Positions 2,482-59,167 of a stretch of 64,000 nucleotides of DNA are shown here, piece after piece; within the stretch, counting starts at the first letter, position 1; every line of letters begins with the position of its first letter. Origin of the DNA: a virus. Its lineage: Duplodnaviria > Caudoviricetes. The notes under the pieces were generated by a model. The model worked only from the letters and a program-made list of their open reading frames with translations, was not told the DNA's origin and searched no databases. Position numbers and translations under genes: made by a program. The stretch lies in IMG/VR virus record IMGVR_UViG_2645728028_000002, positions 64,001 to 128,000 of that record. One strand, given 5' to 3'.

Positions 2482-3289
2482 CGAGACTAAAATATCACTA
2501 GGACTTTTTGAGACTAAATTTCTACATAACACAACTTACATTTTATCACTACGATTTTTAGGGAGGTAATATATTATGAGACAAATAGAAAACATTTGGA
2601 CATTGGTTTATAAAGAAAAGAATGAAGATCCACATGCACACAGTTATACATCTGAAAGTGATGCACTTGAAGCTAAAGAATTTATTTTAGACGCTGACGG
2701 TGGAGAAACATTTGATGGTAGCATAGTTGAAATAGAATGGTGCTATTTGATTCAAGGTAAACTAATAATTAAATCAATTTAAAATTAACTTTTTAACGAG
2801 AAAAGGGGGTTACATATTGAATCAATATATTATTGAATTAACAAGGAATATCGGAATAGGTAAAGATATAATTAATTTCTTTACTAACAGAGGATATAAG
2901 GTTGTTTGGGAAGATCGGGATGCAATGCCTAAAACATTAATAATTGAATCATCACATCATTGTATTGAGGACATCAAGAATCTTAAATACGTATCAGATG
3001 TAAAGGAAGTAAGAACAGGTAGTATATTCGTATAAACTACACATTTTATTAGATATCTAAGGAGGAAAGTATGATAAAGAAACTACAGGCAGTTTTTGAA
3101 TATTTATGGTACTCATTATTTATACATATCCTGTTATTAGGATTTATTTATACGACAAATGAAGGCAAATTATATAACTTATGGACTATCTTTATTACAT
3201 TTCCTTTATTTGCGATTTGCCTTTATAAAATTAATACGCATTTTAAGAAAGGTATGGATCAAATGAAAGATTCTTTGAAGAATAATTAA
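1719..3289 (+). CDS. Five small hypothetical proteins (1719-1952, 2108-2419 with N-terminal hydrophobic segment, 2576-2782, 2817-3035, 3071-3289 membrane)
   Basis: ORFs each preceded by a purine-rich RBS. Confidence 0.7.
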
Positions 3290-3460
3290 GATAAAAACTA
3301 ACTTTCATTAAGAGCCAGTAAAAGGCTCCTTCTTTCTGAAGGTGCGTTAAATTTTATTATAACTTTTTATAAAAATTTACCAAAACTCTATTGACCAAAG
3401 GAAAACTTTGTTATAACATCATTATTGTAAGAAATAGCAAAACAAACAAAATTTGGAGGT

Positions 3461-4156
3461 ATGTGGAAGATGGGATTGTTCACGAGTAAGATAGCTATTG
3501 GAGTTTTAGCAGGTGGATTTACATTAGCTGGTGCAGGGTTATTGTTCAACGGAAGTGAGACTTTAGAGAGAGCCAGTTCATTTGTTCAGGATGCCGGAAA
3601 TAAAATTACACAATTTGAAGTTGCAGAAAACGCACTCCTCGATAAAATTTCATTCTTGAAGAATGATGCTAACTCTAAAATTGAAGCAGCAAACGCAACT
3701 ATTGCAGATAAGAAAGCAGAAATTGAAGGATTGAATACACAGATCACTGATTTAACATCACAAAGAGATGCCTTAACTGCAGAAGTTGCTACACTAGAAA
3801 CAGAGATTACTAATTTAACAGCAAGCTTGAATGATGCTAATGCTAACCTTGAAGCTACTCAAGCAGCATTGGATGAAAAAACAGCTCAGTATAATGCGAA
3901 AGTCACTGAGTTACAAAAAGCCAACAACACAATTGCAGAACTTAATAACTTGCTAGTTTGGGCTAAGAACAAAGCACAAGAAGCTGATAGTCATGTGGCG
4001 CAACTTGAGGCTGAAGTCCAGAAGGCTAACGCTGAGGTAGCAGCTCACGGTGAGGTAGTTGAACAAGTCGAAACACAAACAGAAGGAGCAGATCCACTGA
4101 GTCAGGAAGAAGTTGATGCCGTTGATACAACTATTGCTGACGTTGATACAGAATAA
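3461..4156 (+). CDS. Membrane-anchored or exported coiled-coil protein
   Basis: Hydrophobic N-terminus (IAIGVLAGGFTLAGAGLLF) then long Ala/Glu/Gln heptad region; SigA-like promoter TTGACC...TATAAC upstream. Confidence 0.7.
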   Translation: MWKMGLFTSKIAIGVLAGGFTLAGAGLLFNGSETLERASSFVQDAGNKITQFEVAENALLDKISFLKNDANSKIEAANATIADKKAEIEGLNTQITDLTSQRDALTAEVATLETEITNLTASLNDANANLEATQAALDEKTAQYNAKVTELQKANNTIAELNNLLVWAKNKAQEADSHVAQLEAEVQKANAEVAAHGEVVEQVETQTEGADPLSQEEVDAVDTTIADVDTE

Positions 4157-4226
4157 TTCTCTAATGTATAATGAGGATAGGGTGAGGGTTATAACTTCAC
4201 TCTATTTTCTTATAAGGAGAGAGTTT

Positions 4227-4454
4227 ATGGAGGTCGAACGCAAAATAAGGAAGATTGGTAACTCATCTGGTATTATCCTCCCAACTGATTATTTAAGATA
4301 TATTGGAGTAGAGATCGGGGATACGGTATATATAACTATGGAAGAGAATGAGATCAGGATCAGAAGTGAAAAAGGAAAAGAAACCAATGACGAGTTTAAA
4401 GATAAAGTGTTAGCTATAATTGAAGAATACATGGGTAAAGAAGAGTCTAAATAG
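4227..4454 (+). CDS. AbrB/MazE/SpoVT-family DNA-binding protein
   Basis: RKIRKIGNSSGIILP...IGDTVYI motif; RBS AAGGAGAG before ATG 4227. Confidence 0.85.
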   Translation: MEVERKIRKIGNSSGIILPTDYLRYIGVEIGDTVYITMEENEIRIRSEKGKETNDEFKDKVLAIIEEYMGKEESK

Positions 4455-4468
4455 GCTCTTTTCTTTTT
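4441..4468 (+). terminator. Intrinsic terminator
   Basis: AAGAGTCTA-AA-TAGGCTCTT followed by a T-rich tract. Confidence 0.7.
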
Positions 4469-4509
4469 GGATTAATTTAGAAAAAGTTAAAAGTAAATGA
4501 AAATAATGG

Positions 4510-4538
4510 TTGATTAATATGAAATAATTTTATATAAT
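4510..4538 (+). promoter_or_regulatory. SigA-type promoter with embedded repeated operator (ATAAAATAATTTAATA family)
   Basis: TTGATT-17-TATAAT with ATGAAATAATTTTATA in the spacer. Confidence 0.65.
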
Positions 4539-4571
4539 TAAATTAAGAAGTAAAACAAAGGAGTGATCAAG

Positions 4572-7500
4572 ATGACTTATGAAGAATATGTCTTAGATGT
4601 ATTTACGGAGCATCATTTATCTGTGGGGCAAGACTTAGAGGAAATTAAAGATGTTATTAGGGAAGCTTCTTTTAAAAAAATTGAGAAATGGTTAACTAAA
4701 ATAGGGTATGATCTTAATGAATACAATTCATTATAAAAATTTGATTTAAATGGTAAAATTATCTCAACTACAAGTGAAAGGATGATAAAAATGTATAAAG
4801 TGTATGCGTTGGATTTTGATCAAACAAGAGTGATTAACATTATTGATACTATTGAAGAAATTAAGGAATGGGCAGAGATTAATGGCTATACAATCACTAA
4901 AATTATCAATAGGAAATCAAAACAAATCATAAAATTATAGGGTAGGCTAATTGTATAACTTAGAATAAAATTTCCCTTTTATGGAGAATTATTTGGTAAA
5001 ATTTAATTAAAAAGGAGAGAAAAAAATGGCTGCCGATTACTTAACACATATTAATGATGAGGATCTTATAAAACTTTACGAAGAAATTGGAGAAAGAAGA
5101 TCATGTGGAGACTTTAACCAGCGAGATGAAGATATTCTAGTTGTTTCTGCAATGTCAAAAAGAAAATTAATTCACTTGTCAAAATTCAATAGAGGCTTAC
5201 CTAAATCAGAGAAATGGCGTTAAAACCATTTTCCAATAAAACTTCTCTTTTAATGGGAAAAGGAGGAAAGAAAATGCTTGAAGGAAATACAATTAAATTT
5301 GGACATGGGACTGTACTGGTATATTCAAGTCAGTTAACAAGGAAGGTGATTTTAGAATTTATTCAACCACCAAAGCCAGTAGGAAAACTGATCAAAGAAG
5401 ATATTGAAGATGTTGTAGTTTTAGACTCAATTACATTTGATTATGGAAAAGATATGAAGCCATTTTATGAAGAATTGCAGCAAGTAAGTGAAAATAATAC
5501 TATCTTAGAATTTAGAGGATATGTATTTGATTTCTCTAACTACAATCCAGCATCAGTAGAGGTTTTAATGGGTGGATTTAAACGAGCAATTACAGGAAAT
5601 ACACTGACGTTAGCTTGTTAAATAAGGAGGGTATAAATGATTACAAGTGGAATGTTAGAAGAGCTTCTTGAGAACATCGATAAACCAAAGCAGCCAGATC
5701 TAATTGTAGAACAAAAGAAAAATAAATACATTGCCTACTTTAGAAAGAGTCCTCAAAGAATTGGGTTTGGAAATTCAGAAGTTAAAGCATTGGAGAATTT
5801 AAAGAGTTTATTAGGATAGGGAGGAAATTAAAAATGCATAAAAAGGTTAAGTTACATGGATGCGAGTTATATGAGATCACATTAGGAGAGAAGAAATATA
5901 TTTGCACAATTGAAAATGTAGATATGAATGAATATTACGCATATCATGAAAGAGGAGAAGGAACTTCAGTAGCTATGTTAAATACAGTGGATATTGTTGA
6001 ATTAATGACAACTGGAAGCATTGACAGAAAACATATGACTGTAAAGCCATATAATAAGTAAATAAAACAAGTCTCTTATCGCAATTTCACATCATTACGT
6101 GCAACTGCACGATATGATAATCACTATATAATAACTATTTTAAAGGGAGAGAGAATAATGAAAATCTTATTAATCGAAAATGAAATTGTTAACTTTCTAC
6201 ACGTAAATAACATTAGACCAGCACTGAATCCAAGTAGTAAAATGTATAAAATCAAGGTTGAAATGGTAAACGGATCTGCATTTGAAACATTAGATAATTA
6301 TACAAAAGGTGAAGCAGAAGAAAAAATCCTTGAGATTTCAGCTCTGTTAGCAAGTAGCCAAAATGAAGTAATTATACAGTAGGGGGGTGATTAGTGTGTT
6401 GTTAAATCCATGGGTATGGGACTCTGCAGCGCAAGAAAAGTATCCAGACAGGGTTACAGGTGAATCAGTACCATTAGAATATCTAAATGAAGGCTATTCA
6501 GAATATTATCCATATACAAGCTGGATTACTAAAGGGTACGTTAAACGAATTGAATTAAAGGAATATGCTACAGAGTTACTATAAGGAGGGTTAATGATGG
6601 GTGAGTTAATATTTGGAATAGTGTTTATCAGTTTGTTTTATGTGATTGCTGCAGTATGTACGATGTTTAAATTAGATCCAACAAAATTATTTAAAATAAA
6701 TTAATCAAATATAATATACAAATAAAAGTTAAAGTGGTATAATTTACATATCAAGTAAAGGGAGAGGATAATATGAAATTTAAGAAAGAATTTATTTTAA
6801 AAAGACAAGGATATGATCCAGTTAAGGTAGTTGTAAAAATTAACGACAACAACATTTACATAAGAACATTCGCAGAAATTCACTTTCTAGATCTTGCTCA
6901 CTTATTATGTGAAAAAACTCCACTATTAGAAGTAGTTTACGAGAGGTCAGCACCTTACAAACTTGTTAAAACTAAGCATAGAGAAGGGGATAAATTCTCT
7001 TACAAAGAATATGGCTTAACTTATTTGCTCATTAAAGATGGAATAATTAAAGAAGAAACCAAACATCTTATTAATTTACACACAGTTAATACAAAAGTAA
7101 AAGGAACTAGAAATATGTTTATTCCAGACTTATTGCTGGTTATGCAGGATTACGGATATGTAAAAGAAACTGGTAGTGGTAAATTTAAAGCAGCTAGAAA
7201 ATTCAGTGATCATGTTGTATTTGAAGATCTAACATTTAGTCCAGAAAATTTAAGAAATCAAGGATTTATTATTCCTAAAAAGTATGAGGAGAAATTTGCT
7301 TTAAAATTCTAATTTTATACAGAATAGGGGAAGGTATATGAATAAATTTACATGGAAAAACGTAATTCATGGTGAACATGCATTGAGATTTGGACATATT
7401 GATAACTTCTTTAATCAAATTGTTGTACCTTCTGGTTATCCATACTTTATTTGGAACGATATAATTTATAGGGTTGAGGATAGATATAGTAAGAATCGCT

Positions 7501-7983
7501 TTACAGATACAGGTTGCACAATTAATGATATAGAAGGATAAAATGCTGATTGTATTATGAAAGGAGTATTCAAATGAGAATTATTAACGAACACTTTGAT
7601 CCGTTTATGTCATTAGTAAACTATGATTATACAACGGATGAATATATTATTGTTACACAGGAATGGGATAAACACGCAGGAAACTACTGGGGAAGAAGTG
7701 TAGAGGAATTTAAAAGTCAGGAAGAAGCCGAAAAGTGGTTGAAAGAATATAGAAAACAAATGGAAATTGAGGAGCACAACCAAATAAAAATCTGATTTTA
7801 AGGGGAAAGGATGTGAAGATAATGGTCATGTTTGTACTTCATGAAGATGGCTCTGATTTCTTTAATTTTAATATTGAACCACGACAATATAAAAAAGGGG
7901 AAATCATTGAACATGAAAGACTTGAGGGCAAGTTTAAAGTTTTGCACACTGACTTAGTTACGGTAACGGTAAAGCCAGTCTAA
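4572..7983 (+). CDS. Run of ~14 small hypothetical proteins (incl. 4572-4736, 5026-5223, 5274-5621, 5637-5819, 5834-6061, 6158-6382, 6387-6584, 6773-7312, 7338-7541, 7574-7795)
   Basis: Co-oriented ORFs with RBSs; many delimited by the junction palindrome. Confidence 0.7.
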
Positions 7984-8014
7984 ATAATATATCCATTTTA
8001 AAGGGAGGAATTAA

Positions 8015-8674
8015 ATGAATATAGACCTGTTAATTGATGCAAAAGAAAAGAAGTGTACAGATTGTCTTGAAGCTTTCCCTGCAACGGAAGAATATTTTTA
8101 TAAACAAAAGACTCATACGAAAACTAAGGGTACATTTTATAAGTTAAGTTCTCATTGTAAGACTTGCACAAAGAAGCGAACACTAAAATATCAACAAGAA
8201 AATCCAGAGAAACATAATGAGGCACAAAAGAAATATCTGTACGGTACAGTAAAAGGAAGAGAAACAAGAAAAAGAAATTTGGATAAATGGGTTTTAAACG
8301 GAGGATATAAAGATTGGCAACAGAATAATAGAGATAAAATTGTAGAATATAACAAAGATAGAAGACATAAGAATCATGATATAACTGATCAAGAATGGTT
8401 TGAATGTCTCGATTTCTTTATGAATTCGTGTGCATATTGTGGAATATCTGAAAATGAAGCGTTAATCTTATATAATCAAAGATTAAACATGGAGCACGTA
8501 GATGATGACGGGGCTAATGACATAACTAATTGTGTTCCTGCTTGTAAGAGTTGCAATAGTAAGAAGTGGACTTTTGAATTGAATGAATGGTATAACACCG
8601 ACAATCCAGTGTATAGTAAAAGAAGATATAATAAAATAATCAAGTGGCTATTAAGTTTCACAAAGAAAGATTGA
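8015..8674 (+). CDS. HNH endonuclease (paralogue 1 of 3)
   Basis: N-terminal CxxC pairs; CAYCG...EHV...GANDITNCVPACKSCNSKK. Confidence 0.88.
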   Translation: MNIDLLIDAKEKKCTDCLEAFPATEEYFYKQKTHTKTKGTFYKLSSHCKTCTKKRTLKYQQENPEKHNEAQKKYLYGTVKGRETRKRNLDKWVLNGGYKDWQQNNRDKIVEYNKDRRHKNHDITDQEWFECLDFFMNSCAYCGISENEALILYNQRLNMEHVDDDGANDITNCVPACKSCNSKKWTFELNEWYNTDNPVYSKRRYNKIIKWLLSFTKKD

Positions 8675-8705
8675 TTTCATTACAAATAAAAAGGAGTGAT
8701 TTACA

Positions 8706-11700
8706 ATGAATGGTGAATGGACGTATGCAAACTTAAATGGTGAATGGGAACATGAATCATATTACACAAAGGAAGACGCTGTTCAGGCAGGAAGACTGGA
8801 GTTTAATGGAGAATTTCTTGTTGGACAGTTGAATGGTGATGACGAGGAATTAGAATACTTGGTTGAAAATATTGAAGAAATAGAATAAAAAATATAATTT
8901 ATTTGAACTGTTGTCAGACTATTTTCAGAAAGGATGGCTTAAATTTGGCACTATGCGATGAATGTCAAATGAATAAGATTCCGAGTGGTTGTGGAGTTGG
9001 TGTTAAAGATTATGAAGTTGTTAAAGGTGTTGGGGTAGTATCCTGCAAATATTTCATGGAGATTAATGGGGACTTAGCAAAAGCTCAGAAAGTCAAAAAT
9101 GAAATTCACGTAAAAAGATATAGTTACTGAATAAAATGAAAGATATATAGTGACGCACTAGACATAAAATGTGCATTAAGGAGGAATTGAGATTGAATGA
9201 TTTCTTAAATACAGTATCTTTCATAATTTTTATGCTAATCGTTCTTGGAGTTATGAGTTATGCACTAAGTATTTAACTAAGAAGCACTCCAGATTGAAAA
9301 ATAAATTTGATTTAAAATCCATTTAGGATGTGATCCGATGAAAATAAATCAAAGGGTATTAGTTACTGAAGAAGAGAGTCCATTTCACAATAGGGAAGGG
9401 GTAATAACTCAGATTCAGAAATATTACATTACTGTGCAGCTTAATAACTTTCCTTGTGAAATGAAATTTACTGATGATGAATTAACTGTGTTAGAGGATT
9501 CCACATGTACGCTGTAATTATAAGAACAAAGCGAGGCTATGAACTACAATATAAAGATGATCTAGCAAGTGAGAATGTAACTGGGAAAGAGTATTCGAGC
9601 AATGATGAAATATTGAAACGATCACTGACTGCAGATTGGCAAGAAAGTAATGAAGAAAATGTACTTTGGGTGGCAAAATTGATTGACAATTAATATAAAA
9701 TAATCTAATATTATAAATAAGAACAAGTTGAAAAATAAAAACAAAAATTATTATCCTTAATCACCAATAGGCGAATCCCTCATATACTACAGTATAAACC
9801 ATGAGGGAGAGATTAATATGAAATTACAAGCATTGAACATTAAGAAGTTAAGAAAGAAAAGTATTGCAGCAATTAGAGATATCCTGAAGGCATATAACTT
9901 GAATTATTCTATTGCAGATGACAAAGATAAACTTCTCAGTAAGGTTGAAGAGATCCAGCATTACAGTAGGAAGATAAAAGTGTACTCACGGTATGAAATG
10001 TCCATGTAGTTGAAAAATAACAGCTTTAGTTATTAAAACAACAAAGGAGAGTTTCAAATGATTAGAGTTAGATATGATATCCCTATTGATGAGTATTATT
10101 TCATCCCTACTGGATCAGAAGTTAAATATCTGGGTACTGAGAAAGGATTCTCTGTAATAGAATATAATCAAATAAAGTATGTAGTGAATGAAGGGTATTT
10201 AGAGAAGGTTGAAGCGTTAGTTGGTTAGCTGCAAGGATTTATTCCTTGCGGTAAATCCATAAATGATTATGGGATTACTGGAAGGAATAAGGTAAAATAT
10301 AACTAAATAATATAATCATTTTAATGGGAGGTTTATAAATATGATACCCGATATCTATGTGGATGAATTATATTGTATAAACTGTGGAAGTGAGGAACTG
10401 TCTTGTGAAGGTTCTTTTCCAAGTGGAGATGAATTCATATGCAAAGAATGTAATGATGTCAACTGGGTAGTAAGAAGGAATGACTAAATAAAAGAATCGT
10501 TTTATAAGAATATAGAGGTGAGGAATATGGATAGTCAAATCAACGATTGTTTTGTTGATATTGTTGGTAGAAAGCCTACAATTAGGGAAATGTGGTACAT
10601 CACTAACAATCTACCTAAAGAAGTTTATCAACTTTCAAAGCAGTGGGGATCAAATGATACTGAAGTCGCAGTTTAATTTTTAGGTGGATAAAAGACAATA
10701 AAGATGTAATTTGCAATTAAGAATTATTACATCGTAAATTGGAGGCATTATCAATGAACACTGAAAATAAGCAATGTATTTTTGAAAATTGTAAAGAGGG
10801 GGTTAGATCAAAGGGACTTTGTAAAAACCATTATGCTAATTATATTTACACTAGGAAGACTAAGGGAATTGATTCAGTTGAAGATTATCTAAGGCTTAAG
10901 AAAAATGAAGAAAAAGAAACAAGCAGTAAATTAAGAGAGCAATACAAATCTCTTGAGAGATACGCTGCGGGAATAAACACAGGGACTAATGCGGGGAGAA
11001 GAGAAAGAGGTAATGCAGGTAAATACAAAAAGAGTGTGATTAATCCTGTGTCAATTAAGAAATCATTAGAACGATTGGATGATTAAAATAAAAGAAATCT
11101 TTCTTAGTGATTTGTACCTTCTAGGGAGGCTGTAGAGTCCTCCATCTGGTTTCATTTCTGAGTTTATAGTTTTGGTTTGAGCGATACTGGTCATATCGCT
11201 CCTGCCTAGAGGGTATGAATCGCAATAAAATTTTAGATTGATTCGAAAAAGGAGTGAAATGAATGAGAATTGACTATAACCTTGATGTTAATTCTTTATT
11301 GGAAATGAGTCAAAGCAATGCATATTTAGAAAAAGGAGATTCTGTTATTATAATGGATAGAGAAACTGGCGAACGTGTAAAAGCAAAAATCATTAATATA
11401 AAAAAGGATGGAACTTATATTCTAAGTAGATATTAAAGAAGCCAATAATTAAATCGACTTCTTCATCCCACAATTACTACACTCTCTAAGGAATTCACCA
11501 TTACCAGCTTTAGATTTAAAATGTGAGTTACCGCAGTTATCACAGCGTCCAGCTTGTTTATCAGGTAATTCCTTATAGGTGTAAACTTTATCAAGATCAA
11601 TATTATTGTAATCGTATTCCATGATGTCACCCCAGAAGATAATATATCACATGAGATAAAGGAATAAAATATTTGTTTTATAAAGGAAGTGTTAGCTTTG

Positions 11701-11958
11701 AGAGAAACGATAGTAAATGACTGTGTGGACAATGAAAAGACTTGCTCATGTGGCAATAAGGCTGTTAAAGAAGTTAAAGATCCTGAAGACTTTATTACTG
11801 GTAAAATGGCAGCATATTATTGCTCCGATTGTTTTGAGAAATGGAAAGATAGTAAAGAACCCAATCCAGAAGAGGATTTAGATTTTCTTATAAGTAAAGG
11901 TATTGATCCAGTAGAAGCTGAGAAAATGATTAGTCTCATTCACAACAGAAACAAATAA
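8706..11958 (+). CDS. Run of small hypothetical proteins (8706-8888, 8903-9130, 9505-9693, 9818-10009, 10739-11086 Cys/His zinc-finger-like, 11689-11958 and several <60 aa)
   Basis: Co-oriented ORFs with RBSs. Confidence 0.65.
9683..9711 (+). promoter_or_regulatory. SigA-type promoter with repeated operator
   Basis: TTGACA-17-TAATAT containing ATAAAATAATCTAATA. Confidence 0.6.
11107..11223 (+). ncRNA. Candidate structured non-coding RNA (multibranch fold)
   Basis: 19-bp closing stem 11107-11125/11205-11223 (4 G-U pairs on the + strand); internal hairpins GGAGG..CCTCC and GAGCGATA/TATCGCTC; GC-richer than surroundings. Confidence 0.55.
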
Positions 11959-12005
11959 AACCTGCTTTAAGTGGCGACTCAAGGCAGGTAATATCTATTA
12001 AACAA

Positions 12006-12164
12006 TCAAGCTATTTCATCGTACCAATCAGTTTCAATGATATCCAGAACATCTAACTCTTTCTTAGATCCATCAGGGAATTCAAAAATTAACGTTCCTT
12101 TCACTGGTAAATTTTTATCAAAGACTTTTCCTACAGCGACAACTTTAATCTCGGCTACATCCAT
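12006..12164 (-). CDS. Small 52-aa protein divergent from the XRE gene (not in ORF track)
   Basis: MDVAEIKVVAVGKVFDKNLPVKGTLIFEFPDGSKKELDVLDIIETDWYDEIA; RBS AAAGGGAG. Confidence 0.65.
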   Translation of the reverse strand: MDVAEIKVVAVGKVFDKNLPVKGTLIFEFPDGSKKELDVLDIIETDWYDEIA

Positions 12165-12291
12165 TGCTTAATCGCTCCCTTTTGCGTTAAAATACAATTA
12201 GTAAATCTTAGTAACACTATCTGTAACTAATTATAGGACGAATTGGAAATAAAAACAATCACAAATAGTTTAATATAGACACACAAAATGG

Positions 12292-13011
12292 GTGTATGGA
12301 GTTGAGAGCATGGAAGTATTAGCTAAAAGATTAAAGTGGCTGCGAAATAAGGAAAGGTATTCTCAAAAGGAAATGGCTGATAAGATTGGTATGACCCCAA
12401 GTGGATATCAGAAGATTGAGTTATCAGAGCGAGATCCTAAGCTCGATGTATTGGTAAAATTCTGCGACATATTTAATGTTAGTGCAGACTTTCTTTTAGG
12501 TAGGGAAGATGATTTTGACTCTTTATATTCTCAAAGGAATGCTTTTCATATGTTAGAGATGAAATTAGCAACATCACTAGTGGAGAAAAAGACTTATGAA
12601 AAGAAAATTAGCGACCTAAGAGACGATCTTATAACTTCTGCTAAAAAGAAAGGATTTGCAGATGAAGAGACATTAAGTATATCTCAGGTATTAGACGAAT
12701 GCATTGCAGTCCATAAAACTTTATCTGAAGAAATCAGTAGGATGAATGATAGGAAACTTGAATTACTTTCTGAGTATATAAAAGAGTTCTTAGAAATTCC
12801 AGATTCAAATGGGGTTGCTGACCGTATTATTTCTAAGTATGCTCCTTATACTGCCTATATTCAGATGACACTGTTTGATGAGAATGAAATACACTTACAT
12901 GGAACTGAAATAGGAAGCTTAGGGCATTTAGGATCGTTTATGTCTTATAAGGAAGCTGAAGATTATCAAATAGATATACTGAAGAGATTAAACGGTACTA
13001 TAAAACAGTGA
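12292..13011 (+). CDS. XRE-family HTH regulator with C-terminal extension
   Basis: LAKRLKWLR..YSQKEMADKIGMTPSGYQKIE..ERDP..FNVSADFLLG. Confidence 0.9.
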   Translation: MYGVESMEVLAKRLKWLRNKERYSQKEMADKIGMTPSGYQKIELSERDPKLDVLVKFCDIFNVSADFLLGREDDFDSLYSQRNAFHMLEMKLATSLVEKKTYEKKISDLRDDLITSAKKKGFADEETLSISQVLDECIAVHKTLSEEISRMNDRKLELLSEYIKEFLEIPDSNGVADRIISKYAPYTAYIQMTLFDENEIHLHGTEIGSLGHLGSFMSYKEAEDYQIDILKRLNGTIKQ

Positions 13012-13473
13012 TTTCATTTGGATTTTATAAGGAGTTTTAGCAGCATGAATACCTATTTTGTTAAAGTTTTTAACGGTTATAGGCTCATACATGACGAAGT
13101 TTATTGTGCAGCCAGTAAGAATGATGTTTTAAAAAGTCTGCTTATTGGCTGTGTAATAGATCAGTATACTAAGATTTTAATAGAAGAATGAATTATTGGA
13201 AAAACATTCTGTTTTTCCTTGCGTAATATAAAATAATTTGATAATATAAAGGAGAGGTTAGAAATGGAAAATAAAGATGTTAAACAAGGATTGATCATGG
13301 GCTGCATTCCCTTCCAGAGCTTTCAAGAGAAACGTAAAATTATTCATCAATTAAGGTCAGAGTTTCGCCCTAATCTGCGAATTTGGGAGGAAAATAATAT
13401 GATTACTTATGAATCCTTCACTTCTTATAACTAGACATTCATTTAAGAATAAATAGCAAAATACATAAATAAT

Positions 13474-13525
13474 ATAAAATAATTTAATAAAAACTGTTGA
13501 CTAGCACAAGTTATTGTTGTAAGAT
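13474..13525 (+). promoter_or_regulatory. aimR promoter with upstream repeated operator
   Basis: ATAAAATAATTTAATA at 13474; TTGACT 13497, 17 bp, TAAGAT 13520. Confidence 0.7.
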
Positions 13526-13562
13526 TAAGGTAACAAATTAACAATAAAAGGGTGACGAGGAA

Positions 13563-14732: not shown

Positions 14733-14751
14733 AAGGGGGTGAAATAATAAT

Positions 14752-14871
14752 ATGAATAAACGTACTTTTATTTTCGCAATCGTATGTGTTGCTGCAGTTG
14801 TAGCAGGGTTTGCATTTGGTAGTGATTTAATGGGAGCTACATATTTGGCTGATCCTAAACCGGGTGGATGA
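14752..14871 (+). CDS. aimP: AimP arbitrium pro-peptide (39 aa); predicted mature peptide DPKPGG
   Basis: MNKRTFIFAIVCVAAVVAGFAFGSDLMGATYLADPKPGG; Sec signal peptide; RBS AAAGGGGGTG; directly after aimR. Confidence 0.9.
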   Translation: MNKRTFIFAIVCVAAVVAGFAFGSDLMGATYLADPKPGG

Positions 14872-14900
14872 TTTTTAAAATAAAATAATCAAATGTGTTT

Positions 14901-14940
14901 TAATGGGTGCTATCTTATAGATAGTGCCCATTAGTATTTT
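14901..14940 (+). terminator. Terminator-like hairpin after aimP
   Basis: TAATGGGTGCTATCT-TAT-AGATAGTGCCCATTA then GTATTTT. Confidence 0.7.
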
Positions 14941-14998
14941 ATAAGAACTAATCCAAAAATTTAAAAATAAAAAATTGGACTAAAAGGGGAAATGAGAA

Positions 14999-15193
14999 AT
15001 GAAAAACACTGAGTACACTTTGAGAAAATTACAAGCAGCCTATTTAAAAGTTACTTTAAGAAAAGAAATGGGAAACAATGAAGAGACATGTATGTATTGC
15101 TGGAATTCTGGTTGTGGTTGCGATTCAAAAAGTAACGTAAAAACTGATTCATTTATCAGTCTAACTACAGCGAGTGAATTCAAATATGCATAA
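14999..15193 (+). CDS. AimX-position small Cys-rich protein
   Basis: Position after the aimP terminator; RBS AAAGGGGA; CMYCW..GCGC. Confidence 0.55.
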   Translation: MKNTEYTLRKLQAAYLKVTLRKEMGNNEETCMYCWNSGCGCDSKSNVKTDSFISLTTASEFKYA

Positions 15194-15196
15194 GGG

Positions 15197-15238
15197 GTTT
15201 AGATGGTGTTAAGAAACTGATCTTAATTCCATCTAAAC
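15197..15238. promoter_or_regulatory. Long inverted repeat after the aimX-position ORF (terminator and/or AimR box)
   Basis: GTTTAGATGG-N22-CCATCTAAAC followed by a T-rich tract. Confidence 0.55.
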
Positions 15239-15957: not shown

Positions 15958-15971
15958 AAGGAGGTATTTAT

Positions 15972-17690: not shown

Positions 17691-17722
17691 AATAAATTAT
17701 CAGCTTTATAAGGAGTGATATT

Positions 17723-49792: not shown

Positions 49793-49793
49793 T

Positions 49794-53807: not shown

Positions 53808-53961
53808 GGAGGTGTGAAGTCCAATGATATCAAGGCTAAAAGACAGTATAAATCACTATAAAATTAAACTTTTATCTCAAGAGTCAATGCTGCTGGAATC
53901 AGTGTTGATATTGATCTCATTTATTATTTTGATCGGAGTTCATAATTTTGCAAAATAAGTG

Positions 53962-53990
53962 TTGTAATATCAAATAATTTAACATATAAT
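53962..53990 (+). promoter_or_regulatory. SigA promoter with repeated operator
   Basis: TTGTAA-17-TATAAT with ATCAAATAATTTAACA. Confidence 0.6.
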
Positions 53991-54041
53991 AAAATTAATC
54001 AAATAAGAAAGGAAGTGATGAGCCTAACCTTGGCAAGTTAG

Positions 54042-54696
54042 GTGATCAATATGAAACTAAAACATCCAGTTAGCGCAAGTATTATTGGGGGTTTACTGAT
54101 AACTAATATTGTTACTGGTTATCAGTTTTCCTCAGAATATCATAAACAAGAGTTAGAGATTCATAAGAAAGAGGAGACCATAAACAGACAGCAGGGAAGT
54201 ATATTTGAGAAAAATAGCTTGTTAGAGAAGCAGCAAGGTGAACTGAATACATATAAAGAAACTGAATCAAAATTAAATAATCAAATAAATATAAAAGACG
54301 ATGAAATTAATAAACTCAAAAAACAACTTGAGGAGACAAAGAAAAGGGAGAAGGAGTCACCCTAGAAAACAAGTTGTGAGTAGAGGGAAAGTTTCAAGTA
54401 AGCAATATTTTGAAGTCACAGCTTACACTGCAGGCTACGAATCAACTCAGAAGCGTAAAGGCGATAAAGGGTACGGTATTACAGCTAGTGGGACTACAGT
54501 GAGTGAAGGGCGTACAGTGGCATGCCCTAAATCTATACCATTTGGAACTAAAGTAAATATTGAAGGGGTGGGACTAAGAATTTGTGAAGATCGTGGGAGT
54601 GCCATAACTAACGGACATTTAGACGTCTATATGGGTAGTTTAAGTCAAGCACAAAAGTTTGGTAGAAAGGTGTTGTCAGTGGAAATTTTAAATTAG
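54042..54696 (+). CDS. Membrane-anchored coiled-coil plus 3D-domain (lytic-transglycosylase-like, YorM-like) protein split by a +1 frameshift at 54360-54363
   Basis: ORF1 (TM + coiled coil) ends CCC TAG; +1 frame continues PRKQVVSRG..VTAYT..GITASG..EDRGSAI..HLDVYM. Confidence 0.8.
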
Positions 54697-54708
54697 GAGG
54701 GAGATTAA

Positions 54709-55227
54709 ATGCAAGTAATTTACGAATATAAAATAGGTGACGAAATTAGAGTAAATAAAAAAGCTAAAGCAGGTATGCCTAACTATGTTGGTAAAATAGG
54801 GAGAGTTATAGGATTCATTTCAAATGGTTCTTTTGATTATGAAGTAGCATTTGATCAGCATACTTATGGAAAGTTCAAAGAGGAAGAGATTGATTTGTAC
54901 GTTGGAGGAGATATTATGGAGAAAAATTATTTTGAAGAAAAAGGCTTAGAAATTGGCAAGTTGGTTAATAAAAAACAAGCAGCATATGGGGATTCGATTG
55001 GTAAGACGAGTAAGTTAATGAAGGTGTTCCTTGAAGGATATAAGAATGAAGATAATACATATACAATTCCAGAAGAATTATTGGATCACATTTTACTTCA
55101 AGTAAGGATTATAGACAAACAAAATAGAATTTTCTCGAATCCAAAAGGAGATTTAATGCAGGAAAATCCATATGCTGATACGGTTGGATATTCATTATTG
55201 GGAATGAGAATGGCTGAACAAAAATAA
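54709..55227 (+). CDS. YorP-like SH3-type N-domain fused to a nucleotide-modification-associated (DUF1599-like) domain
   Basis: VGKIGRV..FDYEV..FKEEEI, then KKQAAYGDS..DKQNRI..ENPYADTVGY. Confidence 0.55.
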   Translation: MQVIYEYKIGDEIRVNKKAKAGMPNYVGKIGRVIGFISNGSFDYEVAFDQHTYGKFKEEEIDLYVGGDIMEKNYFEEKGLEIGKLVNKKQAAYGDSIGKTSKLMKVFLEGYKNEDNTYTIPEELLDHILLQVRIIDKQNRIFSNPKGDLMQENPYADTVGYSLLGMRMAEQK

Positions 55228-55428
55228 TAGTTTTAAAGAGAGTGAGATGATACCTATCTTTAAATACATAGCATACGTTGTAGATACTGCTACTTTCAAT
55301 TTCTATTACAAATGGTTTTATGGGTCAGATATTCGCATATTTGATAATTGTAGCTGGATTGCTTATAAGAGGAATTTACAATAATACAACTCATTTATTT
55401 AGAAATAATCAAACAAGGAGACATACAT

Positions 55429-56175
55429 ATGAACAGATCAAGAGTAAGACAACAAAAGGTTAAGGAACTGGTCACTCAGTTTCCTTTCCTTACTGAAAAC
55501 ACAAATCAACTTGTTACGTATTATTGGAGCCATGTAGAGGGAGCAAAGGATTTCACGGATGTGCTAATGTGCTCATCTTCAGAAGCTATCACAAGAGCAT
55601 TTAGACGATTGGTTAAATCAGGGGAAATTGTATTGTCTAAGGAAGAAAAAGAAAGAAGGCAGCAGTATCAGGAAAGTTTTAGGGAAGATTATCAACCAAT
55701 TTAAAGGAGGAAATTAATTATGATGTTATTTTTAACACTGTTCTTTTTGATTTACTATGTAGTTCTTTTAGTGAAAGGAAACTTCTTTCAAGGTGTCAGA
55801 ATTGCAATGGGAGAAGATGAAATTAAGAAACAGAAACTAGGAATGGATAATTATAAGCCTGATAGTGATTTAGTAATTAAAACATTACTGCTGATGCTTT
55901 TTATTATTCCTTTCTCGATTACCATAATTATTTATCTATGCGTTGCTACACAATATGATCTTTTAAAGTACCCAACACTGGGCTTGTTAGTCTATTACAC
56001 AGTTTCTCTAATGTGGGGATTTATCAAAGGAAAAACAAAAATCGATTTATCATCTGAAGACAAAATTGAAAAATATCGTAAGAAGCTGCAAAGAAAAAGA
56101 ACACTAAAGGGAACATTACTTCAATTGATCTGGGTTGCTTATTTTGGGTACATGGCTTACATGCTCGTACTATAA
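55429..56175 (+). CDS. Hypothetical (55429-55704) and 4-TM membrane protein (55720-56175)
   Basis: RBSs; hydrophobic segments. Confidence 0.65.
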
Positions 56176-56569
56176 AATAAGTAAATAAAACAGGAGTTTT
56201 ATAGTGAGCATTAGACACATATTGTTCACTAAAGGAGGCAAGGGGAAATGCACAAAGAATGCGTGAAATGCGAAGGTATATTCCAGTATAACGAGCAAAT
56301 TTATTTAGATATTAACAATCAATCTTATTGTGAAGCCTGTTATAAAGAAATGCAGAATAGAGGTGAGTAGTAGTGTTTATGGAGACAAGAAAAGTACTTT
56401 GGGAATACGAAGATAGACTAGATATAGATGTAACCGAGGGAATGTTTCGTACTAGTAAAGTTATAGATGGTGTAAGAATGTACCCTTATATATTGATTGA
56501 TTTTGGTATGTATTTTTTAGAACAGTGATGCACAATACGAAGATGTAACGCAATCAAAAGAATATTTGA

Positions 56570-57307
56570 TTGGGAAATGAGGTGGTTAAAATGCCAAAAT
56601 TATCTCCAGAAGAAAAAGAAAGGCGAAAACAAGAAAGAAATCAAAGACGATGGCTTGAGACTCACAAAATTTTCAATGATATAACTTATAAAGTTTGCAC
56701 AAATTGCTCTGAATGGTTTGAGATGAATGATGAAAACTTTTACATAAATAAGAGTAATAGTTTAGATGGATATCACCCTTATTGCAAACAATGCTCAAGT
56801 AAGAAAGCAAAGAAATGGTGTGATGATAATCCAGAGATCACTAAAGCTGCTAAACGTAAATATAATAAATCTCCTAAAGGTAGACCTAAGTTAGCAGCAA
56901 ATGCACAGAGACAGAGAGAAAATGGTGACTACTATAAGTGGAGAAGGGAGAATAAAGAGTATCTTTATGAATGGCGAAGAAAAAGAGACATGAATAAAAA
57001 ACATGAAATATCTGCAACCGAATGGGAATCCTGCAAAAAATATTTTAATGACTGCTGCGCCTATTGTGGAATCACAGAAGAACAAGCAAGGGATGATCAA
57101 GGACAAAATCTACATAAAGAACATGTAAACCATCGTGGAGCAAATGATTTATCTAACTGCATACCTTCATGTAGAATTTGTAATTCAAGTAAGTGGGCTA
57201 AAGACTTTGATGAATTTTACAATAAAGACAATTTAAATTTTACTGCTGGAAGACTACATAAAATTAGAAAATGGCTAACTGAGGATTATTTGCTATATAA
57301 AGAGTAA
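56570..57307 (+). CDS. HNH endonuclease (paralogue 3 of 3; likely start ATG 56591)
   Basis: CTNC..CKQC; CAYCG..LHKEHV..GANDLSNCIPSCRICNSSK. Confidence 0.88.
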   Translation: MGNEVVKMPKLSPEEKERRKQERNQRRWLETHKIFNDITYKVCTNCSEWFEMNDENFYINKSNSLDGYHPYCKQCSSKKAKKWCDDNPEITKAAKRKYNKSPKGRPKLAANAQRQRENGDYYKWRRENKEYLYEWRRKRDMNKKHEISATEWESCKKYFNDCCAYCGITEEQARDDQGQNLHKEHVNHRGANDLSNCIPSCRICNSSKWAKDFDEFYNKDNLNFTAGRLHKIRKWLTEDYLLYKE

Positions 57308-57541
57308 ATCCCAATCTAATCAAGATTTTATAGGAAGATTAGGAGGTTATTAGATGAAACCTATAGATAGAAATTCATTGAATGAAAAAAGAGATGAGTT
57401 AATGATACAACTACTGGAAGAAGGTTATACATCGAAAGAACTGTCAGTAATTTTCAATAAGCATGTACTTGATATAGAAGAAGTATTAGAAAAGAAAGGC
57501 TACGGCTTAATAAATAAAAATAATTAAATAGGAGTGAATAA

Positions 57542-58492
57542 ATGACTAAACCCAAAGTGATATCACTATTCAGTGGTGCAGGTGGAATGGATTTAGGATT
57601 TATCAATGCTGGATTTGAAGTAGTTTGGGCAATTGATTTTGAGCCAGATGCCTGTGAGACATATAGCAAAAACATTGGAGATCATATCGTCTGTGAAGAT
57701 ATTACTCAAGTAAAAACTGAAAATCTTCCAGACTGTGACATTATTATTGGAGGATCACCATGTCAAGGATTTTCTAATGCAAACAGACAGACAAACTTCC
57801 TAGATAATCCTAAGAATTTAATGGTGAGAGAATACATACGTGTAGTAAAAGATAAGCAGCCAAAAGTATTTGTTTTAGAGAATGTTCCAAGATTGCTGAC
57901 TGCTGGTAAAGGTAAATTCTTAAATGAAATTAAAGAACAATTATCTAATTATCACATAGAAGTTAAAGTGTTAAATGCAGTTGATCATGGAATTGCACAA
58001 AAGAGGAGAAGAGCAATACTTATAGGCAGCTTAATAGGAGAAATAAAACATCCAGTTGCTAAAAAAGAAACAATGACTATTCGAGATGTGCTTACAAACA
58101 TTTCTGATGAGTTACCAAATCAGGATGAATACAGGGCATCTAGAGAATCAACTATTGAGAAAATGAAATTAATTAAACAAGGTGACAATGTACATAGTTT
58201 ACCAGCTTCATATAATGTTAGTCCGAATACTCATGAGAATGTGTATAGAAGGCTGGATTTAAATGAACCATCACATACTTTAGCTCATGCAGGAAAAACA
58301 GTTACGATTCATCCAACAGAAGATAGGATCATCTCAATAAGAGAAGCAGCAAGAATACAGTCATTTCCTGATGACTTCACCTTTTATGGGGATTTAAATA
58401 GTAAGTATCAACAGTTGGCAAACGCTGTCCCACCTAAGATGGCTGAAGAAATTGCAAAAGAGATACATAAGCACATACATAATAAGAACTAA
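57542..58492 (+). CDS. C5-cytosine DNA methyltransferase (orphan)
   Basis: FSGAGG, GGSPCQGFS, ENV, QKRRR, REAARIQSFP, ANAVPP. Confidence 0.95.
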   Translation: MTKPKVISLFSGAGGMDLGFINAGFEVVWAIDFEPDACETYSKNIGDHIVCEDITQVKTENLPDCDIIIGGSPCQGFSNANRQTNFLDNPKNLMVREYIRVVKDKQPKVFVLENVPRLLTAGKGKFLNEIKEQLSNYHIEVKVLNAVDHGIAQKRRRAILIGSLIGEIKHPVAKKETMTIRDVLTNISDELPNQDEYRASRESTIEKMKLIKQGDNVHSLPASYNVSPNTHENVYRRLDLNEPSHTLAHAGKTVTIHPTEDRIISIREAARIQSFPDDFTFYGDLNSKYQQLANAVPPKMAEEIAKEIHKHIHNKN

Positions 58493-58536
58493 TTTAATAT
58501 AAAACTTCAATTTTACGGGGAAAAGGGGAACGAAAT

Positions 58537-59109
58537 ATGAGTCGAATTGATGTAATGGTTGACATTGAAACATTAGGAACAGGATCTAACGCAACTATAT
58601 TCCAAATAGCTGCAGTTGCTTTTAACATTGAAACAGGTGAACATTGCTCAAAATTCAATATGATTGCTGATATATCTAAGAGTAGAAAATTAAATGTTGA
58701 CGGTTCAACTCTCAAATGGTGGCTAAACACTAATAAGGAATTATTAACTGACTTGCTAAATAAAGGTGAAGAATCGAGTGAGGATTTACTTTCTAAGTTC
58801 AATAATTGGCTTATGTATTTAACTTCTGATCTTAGAGATATTTATTTATGGGGAAACGGTATCTTATTTGATAATAAAATGATTCAACAGCAATTAACAG
58901 ATTCAGGAGAAGTATATCCTATTTTCTATAAAAATGACCGAGATGTAAGGACGATTGTAGATTTAGCAGGAAAGAAGCTAGGTATTACCGAGCAAGAATT
59001 AAAAGATAAGTTTAAGGATGACAAATTAGTTCATCATGATGCATTCGATGACGTTAAGTATCAGATTAACCTAGTAGCGGGCTGCTACAAATTATTAATT
59101 AGTAAATAA
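58537..59109 (+). CDS. DEDDh 3'-5' exonuclease (RNase AS-like)
   Basis: MVDIETLG, WGNG..FD, RDVRT, HDAFDD. Confidence 0.85.
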   Translation: MSRIDVMVDIETLGTGSNATIFQIAAVAFNIETGEHCSKFNMIADISKSRKLNVDGSTLKWWLNTNKELLTDLLNKGEESSEDLLSKFNNWLMYLTSDLRDIYLWGNGILFDNKMIQQQLTDSGEVYPIFYKNDRDVRTIVDLAGKKLGITEQELKDKFKDDKLVHHDAFDDVKYQINLVAGCYKLLISK

Positions 59110-59167
59110 TTTATTATAAAATTTAGGTTTTAAAGTAAAATATAATCCAAATAAGGAGCTGATAGCA

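Follow-up and report, generated by a model that had tools for sequence, protein, structure and literature searches.

An 18-bp palindrome at accessory-gene junctions of SPbeta-like phages coincides with mosaic boundaries and may serve as a joint for module exchange

The window, i.e. the whole 64,000-nt stretch of phage DNA analysed here, carries three arrays of small ORFs, separated by a yopP-yopR region and a replication operon. Within the arrays, the palindrome ATAAAA-N6-TTTTAT recurs between the ORFs. The arrays and the genes relevant for the discussion are listed below.

2779..23032, + strand, Array 1: about 27 junction copies (up to two mismatches) and about 53 small + strand ORFs
13563-14732, AimR (Pfam match), inside Array 1
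23407..24456, + strand, YopP-like tyrosine recombinase, 349 aa, with R173, K199, H256, R259, H282 and Y291 all present
24549..25904, + strand, YopQ/SroE-like DndB/ParB-fold protein (context)
25953..26930, + strand, MrpR/YopR/SroF-like repressor with a recombinase fold (context), which reads a different element (PMC10516654)
28870..43936, + strand, Array 2: about 21 junction copies, with 9 perfect copies, and about 40 ORFs
53858..60881, + strand, Array 3, following the replication operon: about 6 junction copies

The palindrome occurs far more often than expected by chance, as a previous sequence-only reading of this DNA had proposed. Exact copies number 14 in the window, compared with 0.20 expected from dinucleotide shuffles (maximum 1), and with at most one mismatch there are 40 copies compared with 3.5 (maximum 9); allowing two mismatches gives 81. 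Enrichment was confined to the 6-bp spacer, since other spacers within 0-20 bp gave 0-1 exact copies, and no copies were obtained with the alternative arm arrangements scanned in the window. The enrichment also holds against the AT-rich intergenic background: the intergenic DNA alone (9.8 kb) contains 11, 30 and 52 copies at zero, one and two mismatches, and per-segment shuffling yields 0.04, 0.85 and 8.5, respectively. About 57 copies with up to two mismatches are located at ORF junctions and several more are wrongly buried by the ORF calling (e.g. 10488 and 11664), so the earlier figure of about 65 sites is reasonable. All 13 perfect copies reported previously were recovered at their coordinates, but that list was incomplete, the copy at 59512 bringing the number to 14. 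No description of the motif was found in the searchable literature. The perfect sites, together with two imperfect ones discussed below, are the following.

4965..4982, perfect site, spacer TTTCCC
10488..10505, perfect site, spacer GAATCG, left arm abutted by a TAA stop
11664..11681, perfect site, spacer TATTTG
23015..23032, one-mismatch site, ATAAAA GAAGAC ATTTAT, with the stop codon of ORF 22665-23018 in the left arm
28870..28887, perfect site, spacer TCAGTG
31358..31375, perfect site, spacer CATACA
33240..33257, two-mismatch site, TTAAAA GAGTTA TTTTAA
36195..36212, perfect site, spacer ACGATA, right arm abutted by AAGGAGG
40059..40076, perfect site, spacer CAATGT
40619..40636, perfect site, spacer CTTACC
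40816..40833, perfect site, spacer CGAATG, with extended palindromic flanks (TCTAT...TAAGA)
43126..43143, perfect site in a composite element, preceded by TTCACAAAC-N-TTTTACA
43919..43936, perfect site preceded by the same composite element, TTCACAAAC-N-TTTTACA, and followed by the replication operon
53858..53875, perfect site within a doubtful 44-aa ORF, with the PolA stop 51 nt upstream
56185..56202, perfect site, spacer CAGGAG
59512..59529, perfect site within ORF 59493-59702

The junction copies are unevenly distributed, with 27 at 2700-23100, 21 at 28800-44000 and 6 at 53850-62200. As had been claimed, none was found in the yopP-yopR region (23100-28800) or the replication operon (44000-53850), where the only matches (24778, 25960, 47593 and 51656) are coding, have two mismatches and look like chance occurrences. 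The nrd genes, likewise reported earlier to be devoid of sites, and most of the late operon also lack them. Thus, the variable arrays are dense in sites whereas the conserved yop and replication operons have none.

The sites have a longer consensus, T[T/C]NNN-ATAAAA-N6-TTTTAT-NNN-GA, in which two positions of the right flank are conserved, the G at +21 (24 of 34 sites) and the A at +22 (32 of 34). The element can be described as two mirror-image 11-bp half-sites, T[T/C]NNNATAAAA and its counterpart, flanking a free 6-bp spacer and covering about 28 bp in total. Its position relative to the genes follows the proposed order of stop codon, site, ribosome-binding site and ORF: the upstream stop is a TAA within the left arm in 12 of 34 sites and lies inside the site or at most 9 nt away in 24 (12 + 12), and the first SD-like core follows 0-12 nt after the right arm, also in 24 of 34. 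Both examples given for this layout, the TAA in the left arm at 23015 and the AAGGAG adjoining TTTTAT at 36195, were correct. About half of the junctions between small accessory genes carry the palindrome and the other half do not. Intervals between consecutive sites contain one gene in 27 cases, two in 10, three in 8 and more in 9.

The element is phage-specific and conserved across SPbeta-like phages of several genera, and host DNA is not enriched for it. In the 5.7-Mb genome that contains the window, 19 of 25 exact copies fall within the prophage to which the window belongs (about 145 kb, SPbeta-like, Bacillus), and in another genome (G019) 12 of 13 are found in a second SPbeta-like prophage. 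In SPbeta itself, 13 copies are exact and 25 have one mismatch. Goe11 contains 16 exact copies compared with 1 for a control pattern, and at YopP-family loci the count is 9 in Bacillus sp. and 6 in Neobacillus, compared with 2 for the control. No such enrichment was seen at 78 loci around generic Xer-like genes (in total 82 compared with 76).

The ends of homology blocks were mapped among seven SPbeta-clade phages. Such ends were situated at most 16 bp from a site in 103 of 369 cases (28%), as compared with 2.5% for random positions and about 10-10.5% for random intergenic positions. A block end was present at 76 of 134 junctions with a site and at 82 of 369 without (odds ratio 4.6), and among small-gene junctions the corresponding numbers were 27 of 48 and 20 of 99, although Fisher tests overstate the significance because the compared genomes are related. 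Identical 18-mers are joined to several differing left and right genes (e.g. SPbeta 86073, 88399 and 69423), and most pairs retain the spacer (39 of 43 right-only pairs, 29 of 35 left-only pairs). Spacer identity at orthologous joints thus persists even when one or both flanking genes differ, whereas within one genome only 7 of 6927 site pairs have matching spacers. On the right-hand side, boundaries are concentrated at the final base of the right arm and not along the leader, while about half of the left-only boundaries are found at the SD/ATG, outside the core site. Several anchors are conserved whole, including leader and SD, and shared blocks retain complete sites at both ends. In phi3T, the endpoints of one deletion coincide exactly with the left arms of two sites that differ in their spacers.

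Since DNA identity to the nearest relative is about 70-78%, only three junctions are informative for the lineage of the window itself, and in comparison with the relative L147 they repeat the pattern of a kept site with one or both flanks changed. The 18-mer at 23015 recurs identically in L147 with an unrelated left flank; site 31358 and its leader up to the SD are 90% identical although the ORFs on both sides encode unrelated proteins; and at 33240 the left flanks share 97% identity and the spacers agree, while the right arm and right flank differ.

Boundaries of gene gain, loss and replacement between close relatives are thus found at the sites much more frequently than elsewhere in intergenic DNA, and this coincidence, together with the swapping of sites between genes, supports the earlier description of the sites as joints between accessory genes. 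The expectation that breakpoints would fall within the 6-bp spacer was not borne out, as spacers are intact and divergence begins at the outer edges of the 18-mer or at the SD/ATG. Many other block ends are located at an RBS/ATG without a site, or within genes, so gene-boundary mosaicism in these phages does not need the site, and since the site fills most of the intergenic gap, selection for ORF integrity would place some boundaries there anyway.

We lean, with some reservation, towards the explanation that the element is an exchange joint for ORF modules, a site of about 28 bp in double-stranded DNA, recognized by a dimer specific for this phage family. Most likely, such a dimeric protein would bind the two 11-bp half-sites of an element that occupies the space separating the accessory ORFs, each translated on its own, in SPbeta-like phages. 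In the course of evolution every slot would retain its own site and spacer, often with a short leader up to the SD, while the ORFs flanking the retained site are replaced by crossovers inside the conserved arms or at the arm edge. The sites would then cause exchange and not merely mark its boundaries. Exchange may proceed via YopP, an orphan tyrosine recombinase, or through short-homology recombination between anchors that are nearly identical; the latter, acting at conserved intergenic anchors, accounts for the same patterns.

A possible but rather unlikely alternative is that the palindromes are operators or intercistronic signals only, bound by a protein of phage or host that controls transcription or translation of the next ORF, perhaps by silencing or road-blocking in the lysogen. 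Swapping at ORF boundaries would then reflect illegitimate or short-homology recombination plus selection for intact genes, and the site would merely be what lies at the swap boundaries, with no dedicated enzyme, as for the promoter-early stem-loops (PeSLs) that serve as a precedent (PMC2839356, PMC4122927). The fixed position with respect to the stop codon, with the SD following after 0-12 nt, would fit such a role, as would the reported activity of yopP, yopQ and mrpR in lysogeny (PMC10516654) and the paralogue MrpR/SroF, which has a recombinase fold and only binds DNA (PMC10516654; 10.1101/2025.11.27.690993). The block ends at site-less RBS/ATG and the wholly conserved anchors are also in line with it. 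On the other hand, the sites are absent from operons for which regulation would be most expected (the replication, yop and nrd operons and most of the late one) and from half of the junctions, boundaries are about five times commoner at junctions with a site than at matched ones without, and right-hand boundaries pile up at the end of the right arm instead of spreading over the leader.

It is unlikely, in our estimate, that exchange is dedicated site-specific recombination in which a YopP (SroD) dimer binds the 11-6-11 sites and exchanges strands at the spacer borders, although YopP is a candidate reader or enzyme. The geometry of the sites fits, and the R-K-H-R-H-Y set, complete in the YopP of the window, shows little or no variation across 49 family members. 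Moreover, SPbeta is integrated by the serine recombinase SprA, which leaves YopP with no known substrate (PMC8612738, PMC10516654). Because spacers differ between slots, neighbouring sites could not delete the intervening genes, and because orthologous slots share a spacer, co-resident phages could swap cassettes in register; if so, the system would be a natural counterpart of recombinase-mediated cassette exchange with heterospecific lox sites. The phi3T deletion is also consistent with this mechanism. In contrast, phages in which Lys replaces Arg II (the SPbeta-type YopP allele of SPbeta, Goe13, Goe14, L8 and L2, and also L148) still keep sites and mosaicism, about half of the left-only boundaries, being at the SD/ATG, lie outside any core site, and YopP accompanies all other SPbeta core genes, so that co-occurrence, its sole link to the sites, does not single it out.

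A transcribed hairpin, or a target for an RNase or RNA-binding protein, that processes or stabilizes polycistronic early mRNA is very improbable. All sites are intra-operonic between ORFs with the sigma-A-like promoters as separate elements, a GA is conserved 3 nt past the right arm, two sites are annotated as stem-loops in the SPbeta GenBank record, and a few sites with extended flanks fold well (-8.5 kcal/mol for 40816). However, of six folded sites, four reached only -0.3 to -2.4 kcal/mol and three did no better than shuffled sequence, variants in the arms show no compensatory changes, flank pairing equals the base-frequency expectation, and an Rfam search gave no match. The palindrome is thus conserved as sequence and not as structure, which points to a dimer on duplex DNA.

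A strict integron, with attC-type single-stranded hairpin sites, an IntI-like enzyme and a primary attI site, can practically be dismissed in spite of the embedded stop codons, the promoterless ORF arrays and the nearby tyrosine recombinase, since the 6-bp arms of A and T form unstable hairpins, covariation and structure-only conservation are both absent, the sites cover 18-28 bp and not 57-141 bp, several operator-bearing promoters drive the arrays in place of a single attI-like site or a Pc arrangement, and shared blocks keep a whole site at each end and not one per cassette. From the earlier proposal of an accessory genome built of 1-3-gene modules exchanged at these sites, the units and the boundary coincidence stand, a tyrosine recombinase acting on the sites is a candidate mechanism, and the analogy with integrons finds no mechanistic support.

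Among known systems, SPbeta-like phages contain another repeated element, the SPBRE/SroF box, which is read by the tyrosine-recombinase-fold protein MrpR (YopR, SroF), in phi3T as a 26-bp A-tract box bound by a monomer (PMC10516654; 10.1101/2025.11.27.690993). The SPBRE occurs in about 7-10 copies at promoters and varies between phages (ACAAATACAAAWAATATGTATA in SPbeta, ATAAAATAATTTAATA in this window), whereas ATAAAA-N6-TTTTAT has 40-80 copies between ORFs and is the same in all these phages; identity of the two was rejected on sequence, copy number and location, even if they are sometimes adjacent (upstream of SPbeta aimR and yosX). The PeSLs of T4-type phages are likewise short conserved intergenic repeats between small accessory ORFs in hyperplastic regions, bound insertions, deletions and replacements between close relatives, and have been proposed to allow modular shuffling (PMC2839356, PMC4122927). 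They are promoter-plus-terminator units of roughly 50-70 bp acting through general recombination (PMC2839356, PMC4122927), whereas the present 18-28-bp palindrome with its free 6-bp spacer is neither a promoter, the sigma-A-like promoters with their operator being located elsewhere, nor a stable stem-loop.

The arrangement of two inverted half-sites, each about 11 bp long, on either side of a 6-bp spacer resembles that of loxP, FRT and dif, and the many copies flanking small gene modules resemble the pdif modules of Acinetobacter plasmids. Here, too, a nearby gene encodes a tyrosine recombinase whose active site is complete, but the role of this enzyme is that of a candidate, XerC/XerD orientations do not alternate, and, in contrast to dif/pdif, the spacers all differ within a genome and the host chromosome is not enriched for the motif. 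The arm sequences are presumably also unlike dif. Integron attC sites share the promoterless ORF arrays, the overlap with the stop after each ORF and the presence of a tyrosine recombinase. However, attC acts as a folded single strand and is defined by structure, whereas the phage element, poor in folding, free of covariation and accompanied by neither attI nor Pc, is defined by its sequence.

Exact copies of the palindrome ATAAAA-N6-TTTTAT occurred 14 times in the 64-kb window, as compared with 0.20 expected and a maximum of one in dinucleotide shuffles. With mismatches counted over the two 6-bp arms, there were 40 copies at up to one mismatch (3.5 expected) and 81 at up to two. All 13 perfect sites listed in the sequence-only reading of this DNA were verified as exact copies, and the fourteenth lies at 59512, within an ORF. 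When spacers of 0-20 bp were tried, 6 bp was the sole enriched length (all others gave 0-1 exact copies), and four alternative arm arrangements gave no copies in the window. Since the G+C content of the window is only 31%, enrichment was retested in the 9.8 kb of intergenic DNA alone, with segments shuffled separately. The excess over an AT-rich intergenic background persisted, with 11, 30 and 52 copies at 0, 1 and 2 mismatches, respectively, against 0.04, 0.85 and 8.5 expected.

The motif belongs to the phage and not to its host. In the 5.67-Mb genome assembly (40% G+C) the prophage forms a block of about 145 kb with 31-33% G+C, and this block holds 19 of the 25 exact copies of the whole genome and 55 of the 203 one-mismatch copies, leaving six exact copies in the host chromosome outside the prophage. 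SPbeta has 13 exact and 25 one-mismatch copies, in early and late regions alike, often as a longer palindrome, TCTAAATAAAA-N6-TTTTATTTAGA, and two sites are annotated as stem-loops in its GenBank record. The related phage Goe11 has 16 exact copies versus one for the reversed control pattern, and a second SPbeta-like prophage, in genome G019, accounts for 12 of the 13 exact copies in that genome. In a Bacillus sp. and in Neobacillus paridis, 21-kb loci that encode YopP-family proteins contain 9 and 6 copies, respectively, versus 2 for the control. On the other hand, 78 loci around generic Xer-like recombinases, including those of AT-rich clostridia, exhibited no excess (82 versus 76 for the control); a narrower YopP profile search of the genome contigs gave two true family members, and the remaining loci served as negative controls. 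When viral contigs were scanned with a 14-base form of the motif, the matches listed were mostly single chance matches. The arms are unchanged between phages without detectable DNA similarity, whereas the operator of the repressor MrpR differs. The motif is thus real, phage-specific and kept across genera, and no description of it was found in the searchable literature.

An alignment of 34 junction copies gave the extended consensus T[T/C]NNN-ATAAAA-N6-TTTTAT-NNN-GA, with G at +21 in 24 and A at +22 in 32 sites; the left flank, being coding sequence in most cases, is less well conserved. With T[T/C] and GA placed 3 bp outside the arms, each half-site measures 11 bp. In 12 of the 34 sites the TAA of the left arm is the stop codon of the upstream ORF, in 12 further sites that stop lies at most 9 nt before the site, and in 24 there are 0-12 nt between the right arm and the first Shine-Dalgarno-like core. 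About 57 copies are situated at ORF junctions and a few more are buried by ORF calls, the use of maximal ORFs underestimating gaps and hiding some junction sites. The regions concerned are the following.

2779-23032, + strand: first array of accessory ORFs
23407-24456, + strand: yopP, 349 aa (also SroD), in the YopP-YopQ-MrpR region (23.1-28.8 kb)
28870-43936, + strand: second array of accessory ORFs
44.0-53.85 kb: replication operon
53858-60881, + strand: third array of accessory ORFs

The proposed layout of modules of one to three genes was borne out: the intervals between successive sites hold one gene in 27 cases, two in 10, three in eight and more in nine. The reported gaps in the site distribution were also found, with no junction copies in the YopP-YopQ-MrpR region and none in the replication operon. 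Since the sites are absent from conserved operons and dense in variable arrays, a link to gene turnover is favoured over a purely regulatory role, although this link could run either way.

The window represents an SPbeta-like early region encoding AimR, a YopP-like integrase, a YopQ/DndB-like protein and MrpR (also YopR or SroF, a repressor with recombinase fold), and its PolA shares 80% identity with the PolA of Goe11, Goe12 and Goe14. A different, operator-like repeat, ATAAAATAATTTAATA, overlaps sigma-A-like -35/-10 pairs (e.g. TTGACT-N17-TATAAA at 28925-28960) in seven promoter regions, upstream of aimR, of the yop operon and of array heads.

13474, 23159, 28940, 43410, 43442, 59730 and 60883: operator-like repeat ATAAAATAATTTAATA

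This repeat resembles the phi3T SroF box (10.1101/2025.11.27.690993) and not the SPbeta repeat SPBRE, and it is probably the MrpR/SroF operator of the window phage, analogous to SPBRE. As the promoters are separate elements overlapped by ATAAAATAATTTAATA, the palindromes lie within operons and are not promoters themselves. A composite element, present at 43054-43143 and 43848-43936, consists of TTTGTGAAAAA, about 54 bp further on its inverse TTCACAAAC, then TTTTACA and directly a perfect ATAAAA-N6-TTTTAT; one of the two copies heads the replication operon. Sites with a comparable left flank also occur in the G019 prophage and in the closest relative of the window, L147, where the site is at 9607 and precedes the yop operon.

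The palindrome is conserved in sequence and not in structure. Arm variants are uncompensated (ATAATA is combined with TTTTAT five times in the window, and ATAAAA with TTTTAA thirteen times in SPbeta), and the arms and flanks pair just as often as base frequencies alone would predict. Among six sites folded as RNA, four had minimum free energies of -0.3 to -2.4 kcal/mol and three folded no better than shuffled sequence, and Rfam at gathering thresholds gave no match to the site. Conservation of the palindrome as sequence, together with its strict spacing, speaks for a dimeric protein reading the site on duplex DNA, rather than for an RNA hairpin or a folded strand of the attC type.

The sequence-only reading had proposed that the sites are joints at which accessory modules are inserted, excised or reshuffled. 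A close DNA relative of the window was not found among 60 related genomes, nor by megablast in a phage collection, and an exact-protein look-up with a mid-array ORF gave no match; the best relative, L147, has a YopP that is 87% identical and DNA that is only about 70-78% identical. We have therefore examined the prediction among close relatives sharing the motif: the 60-134 kb stretch of SPbeta and its homologous counterparts in Goe11, Goe13, Goe14, phi3T, SPbetaL8 and SPbetaL2 were compared with one another by all-against-all blastn. After removal of redundancy there were 369 homology-block ends, 103 (28%) of them within 16 bp of a site centre, as compared with 2.5% of random and about 10.5% of random intergenic positions. 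A block end was present at 76 of 134 junctions with a site versus 82 of 369 without (odds ratio 4.6), and for junctions of 15-120 bp between co-directional small genes at 27 of 48 versus 20 of 99 (odds ratio 5.1); the compared genomes are related, so that p-values overstate the significance and the result is best judged by its effect size. The starts of blocks concentrate where the left arm begins, at its first base, and their ends either at the final base of the right arm or 7-8 bp past it.

Individual sites behave in the same way. For the SPbeta site at 86073 (spacer GATGCA), comparison of the seven phages shows one 18-mer joined to three different genes on the left and three on the right, and the sites at 88399 (AGACTG) and 69423 (TGCATA) likewise keep their 18-mer, spacer included, with differing genes on both sides. 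On the left side, the drop of identity to background comes precisely at position 0; on the right, identity falls within or just past the right arm, or else at the Shine-Dalgarno sequence or ATG. Several times the site and its leader to the Shine-Dalgarno sequence (about 31 bp) are conserved as a unit between unrelated ORFs. A deletion in phi3T relative to SPbeta (yoqH-yoqI) runs from one left arm to that of the next site, with the downstream spacer retained. The window lineage and L147 have sites 23015 and 33240 in common, but the left flank of the former and the right flank of the latter are unrelated; site 31358 with 26 nt of leader is 90% identical in the two, although the ORFs on either side encode unrelated proteins. 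Taken together, the comparisons support the site as a joint of accessory-gene modules. Breakpoints within the 6-bp spacer, as anticipated for crossover there, were not seen, the spacers being intact. Among site pairs sharing the right flank alone, 39 have the same spacer, four have spacers with 1-2 differences and none has unrelated spacers; among pairs sharing the left flank alone, 29 have the same spacer and six do not. Partner sites of a tyrosine recombinase share their spacer, but identity in 68 of the 78 one-flank pairs would be predicted by common descent as well. Within genomes spacers differ, with matches in 7 of 6927 site pairs. The site takes up most of each gap it occupies, and 44 of 72 SPbeta block ends lie away from sites, many at the RBS/ATG or inside genes, indicating that mosaicism at ORF boundaries in these phages also occurs without the motif.

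The yoqX-yoqY slot, with an ACGATA-spacer site at its downstream border, contains the anti-Gabija gene gad1 in SPbetaL2 (L019:32009-32902), phi3T_128 (L016:28916-29803), probably gad1, in phi3T, a different 1.2-kb gene in Goe11 (L001:6607-7800) and Goe14, and nothing in SPbeta; anti-defence genes thus occupy site-bounded slots. In the window, two paralogous ORFs of about 220 aa and about 67% DNA identity, 8015-8674 and 36504-37166, belong to different arrays and are each preceded by a site (7984 and 36480), and the pair appears to be either an old duplication or a between-slot transfer of a module. A 517-aa protein encoded at 48-1601 combines an N-terminus resembling N6-adenine methyltransferases (Dam/MTS, below Pfam cut-offs) with DUF4942. 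A Pfam scan of 45 ORFs showed, dispersed among the accessory genes of the arrays, three HNH endonuclease genes, a C5 cytosine methylase, a Spo0E-like protein, RNA-repair-type domains (RlaP, HAD_SAK_2) and a protein with MazE/AbrB fold.

Two mechanisms fit these data. One is short-homology or homeologous recombination between near-identical intergenic anchors, the palindrome being kept by some other binding function; recombination of this kind has been proposed for the PeSLs of T4-type phages (PMC2839356, PMC4122927). The other is site-specific exchange at the sites by the candidate enzyme YopP. Strand exchange would then take place at the spacer borders. This mechanism is in line with the full R-K-H-R-H/W-Y active-site set of the window YopP (R173, K199, H256, R259, H282 and Y291), invariant or nearly so across 49 homologues, and with the fact that phage integration is carried out by a serine recombinase and YopP has no role assigned to it (PMC8612738). 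Furthermore, slot-specific spacers would bar deletion within a genome yet permit in-register exchange between genomes. Against it, the SPbeta-type YopP (L003:28691-29767; also Goe13, Goe14, SPbetaL8 and SPbetaL2) has HSFK instead of the family HxxR, with Lys replacing Arg II (R259), so that catalysis in the model phage SPbeta may be reduced or altered. Arg II is kept in the YopP of phi3T, the window, L147 and L149, and is Lys in that of L148; phmmer gave no match of YopP to solved structures. If YopP/SroD, an orphan tyrosine recombinase of the lysogeny operon, did read the sites, a prophage and an incoming relative could trade single accessory genes, anti-defence genes such as gad1 included, slot by slot; this would need no flanking homology and would leave each phage's own arrays undeleted. 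We regard it as rather doubtful that SPbeta-like phages use such in-register cassette exchange at about 40-80 heterospecific sites with identical arms, slot-specific 6-bp spacers and YopP/SroD as reader.

Three known identities did not fit. SPBRE, the published SPbeta repeat and operator of MrpR (PMC10516654), has the form ACAAATACAAAWAATATGTATA when derived from ten published MrpR targets in SPbeta, and differs from ATAAAA-N6-TTTTAT. A promoter of the phage RNA polymerase YonO is rejected by its single start site, at one late operon (PMC5467207), versus sites mostly in early arrays. Palindromes of the REP/RAYT type form stable hairpins and come with an HUH (RAYT/TnpA) transposase; here the hairpins are unstable and no HUH/transposase family was present, either among the 25 most-matched of 38 Pfam families in 45 larger ORFs or among 10 ORFs Pfam-scanned separately.

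SPbeta and phi3T are model phages for arbitrium signalling and anti-defence gene discovery, and their variable genes, Gad1 included, sit in exactly these arrays. A conserved and easily scored junction element would explain how single genes are shuffled with gene order kept in 130-kb phages, would make it possible to delimit the accessory cassettes of new genomes by rule, and would offer the conserved YopP a testable substrate. Should the YopP link be true, a system of heterospecific recombination sites would be known from phages for the first time, and Bacillus genome engineering could use it as a ready-made toolbox; should it be false, there is still an undescribed, genus-spanning putative protein-binding motif at mosaic joints, comparable to the PeSLs.

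Of the known systems, the suggested integron analogy breaks down on structure, given the marginal hairpins and uncompensated variants: attC is a folded single-stranded hairpin conserved in structure, whereas the window site has no such conservation. An integron platform consists of intI, attI and Pc heading a single array, whereas in the window there are three arrays, with conserved operons between them, and they are transcribed from several operator-bearing sigma-A-like promoters; a distinct attI-like site was not found in the window. With the PeSLs the site shares the trait that conserved intergenic repeats border indels and replacements between close relatives, but a PeSL comprises an early promoter and a stem-loop terminator, and the window site has no associated -35/-10 and an unstable stem-loop. 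The B. subtilis dif, in the sequence we take it to have, matches the site at about 5 of 11 positions per arm, and the geometry of the site agrees with that of tyrosine-recombinase core sites (lox, FRT and dif), with their inverted arms of about 11-13 bp around a spacer of 6-8 bp.
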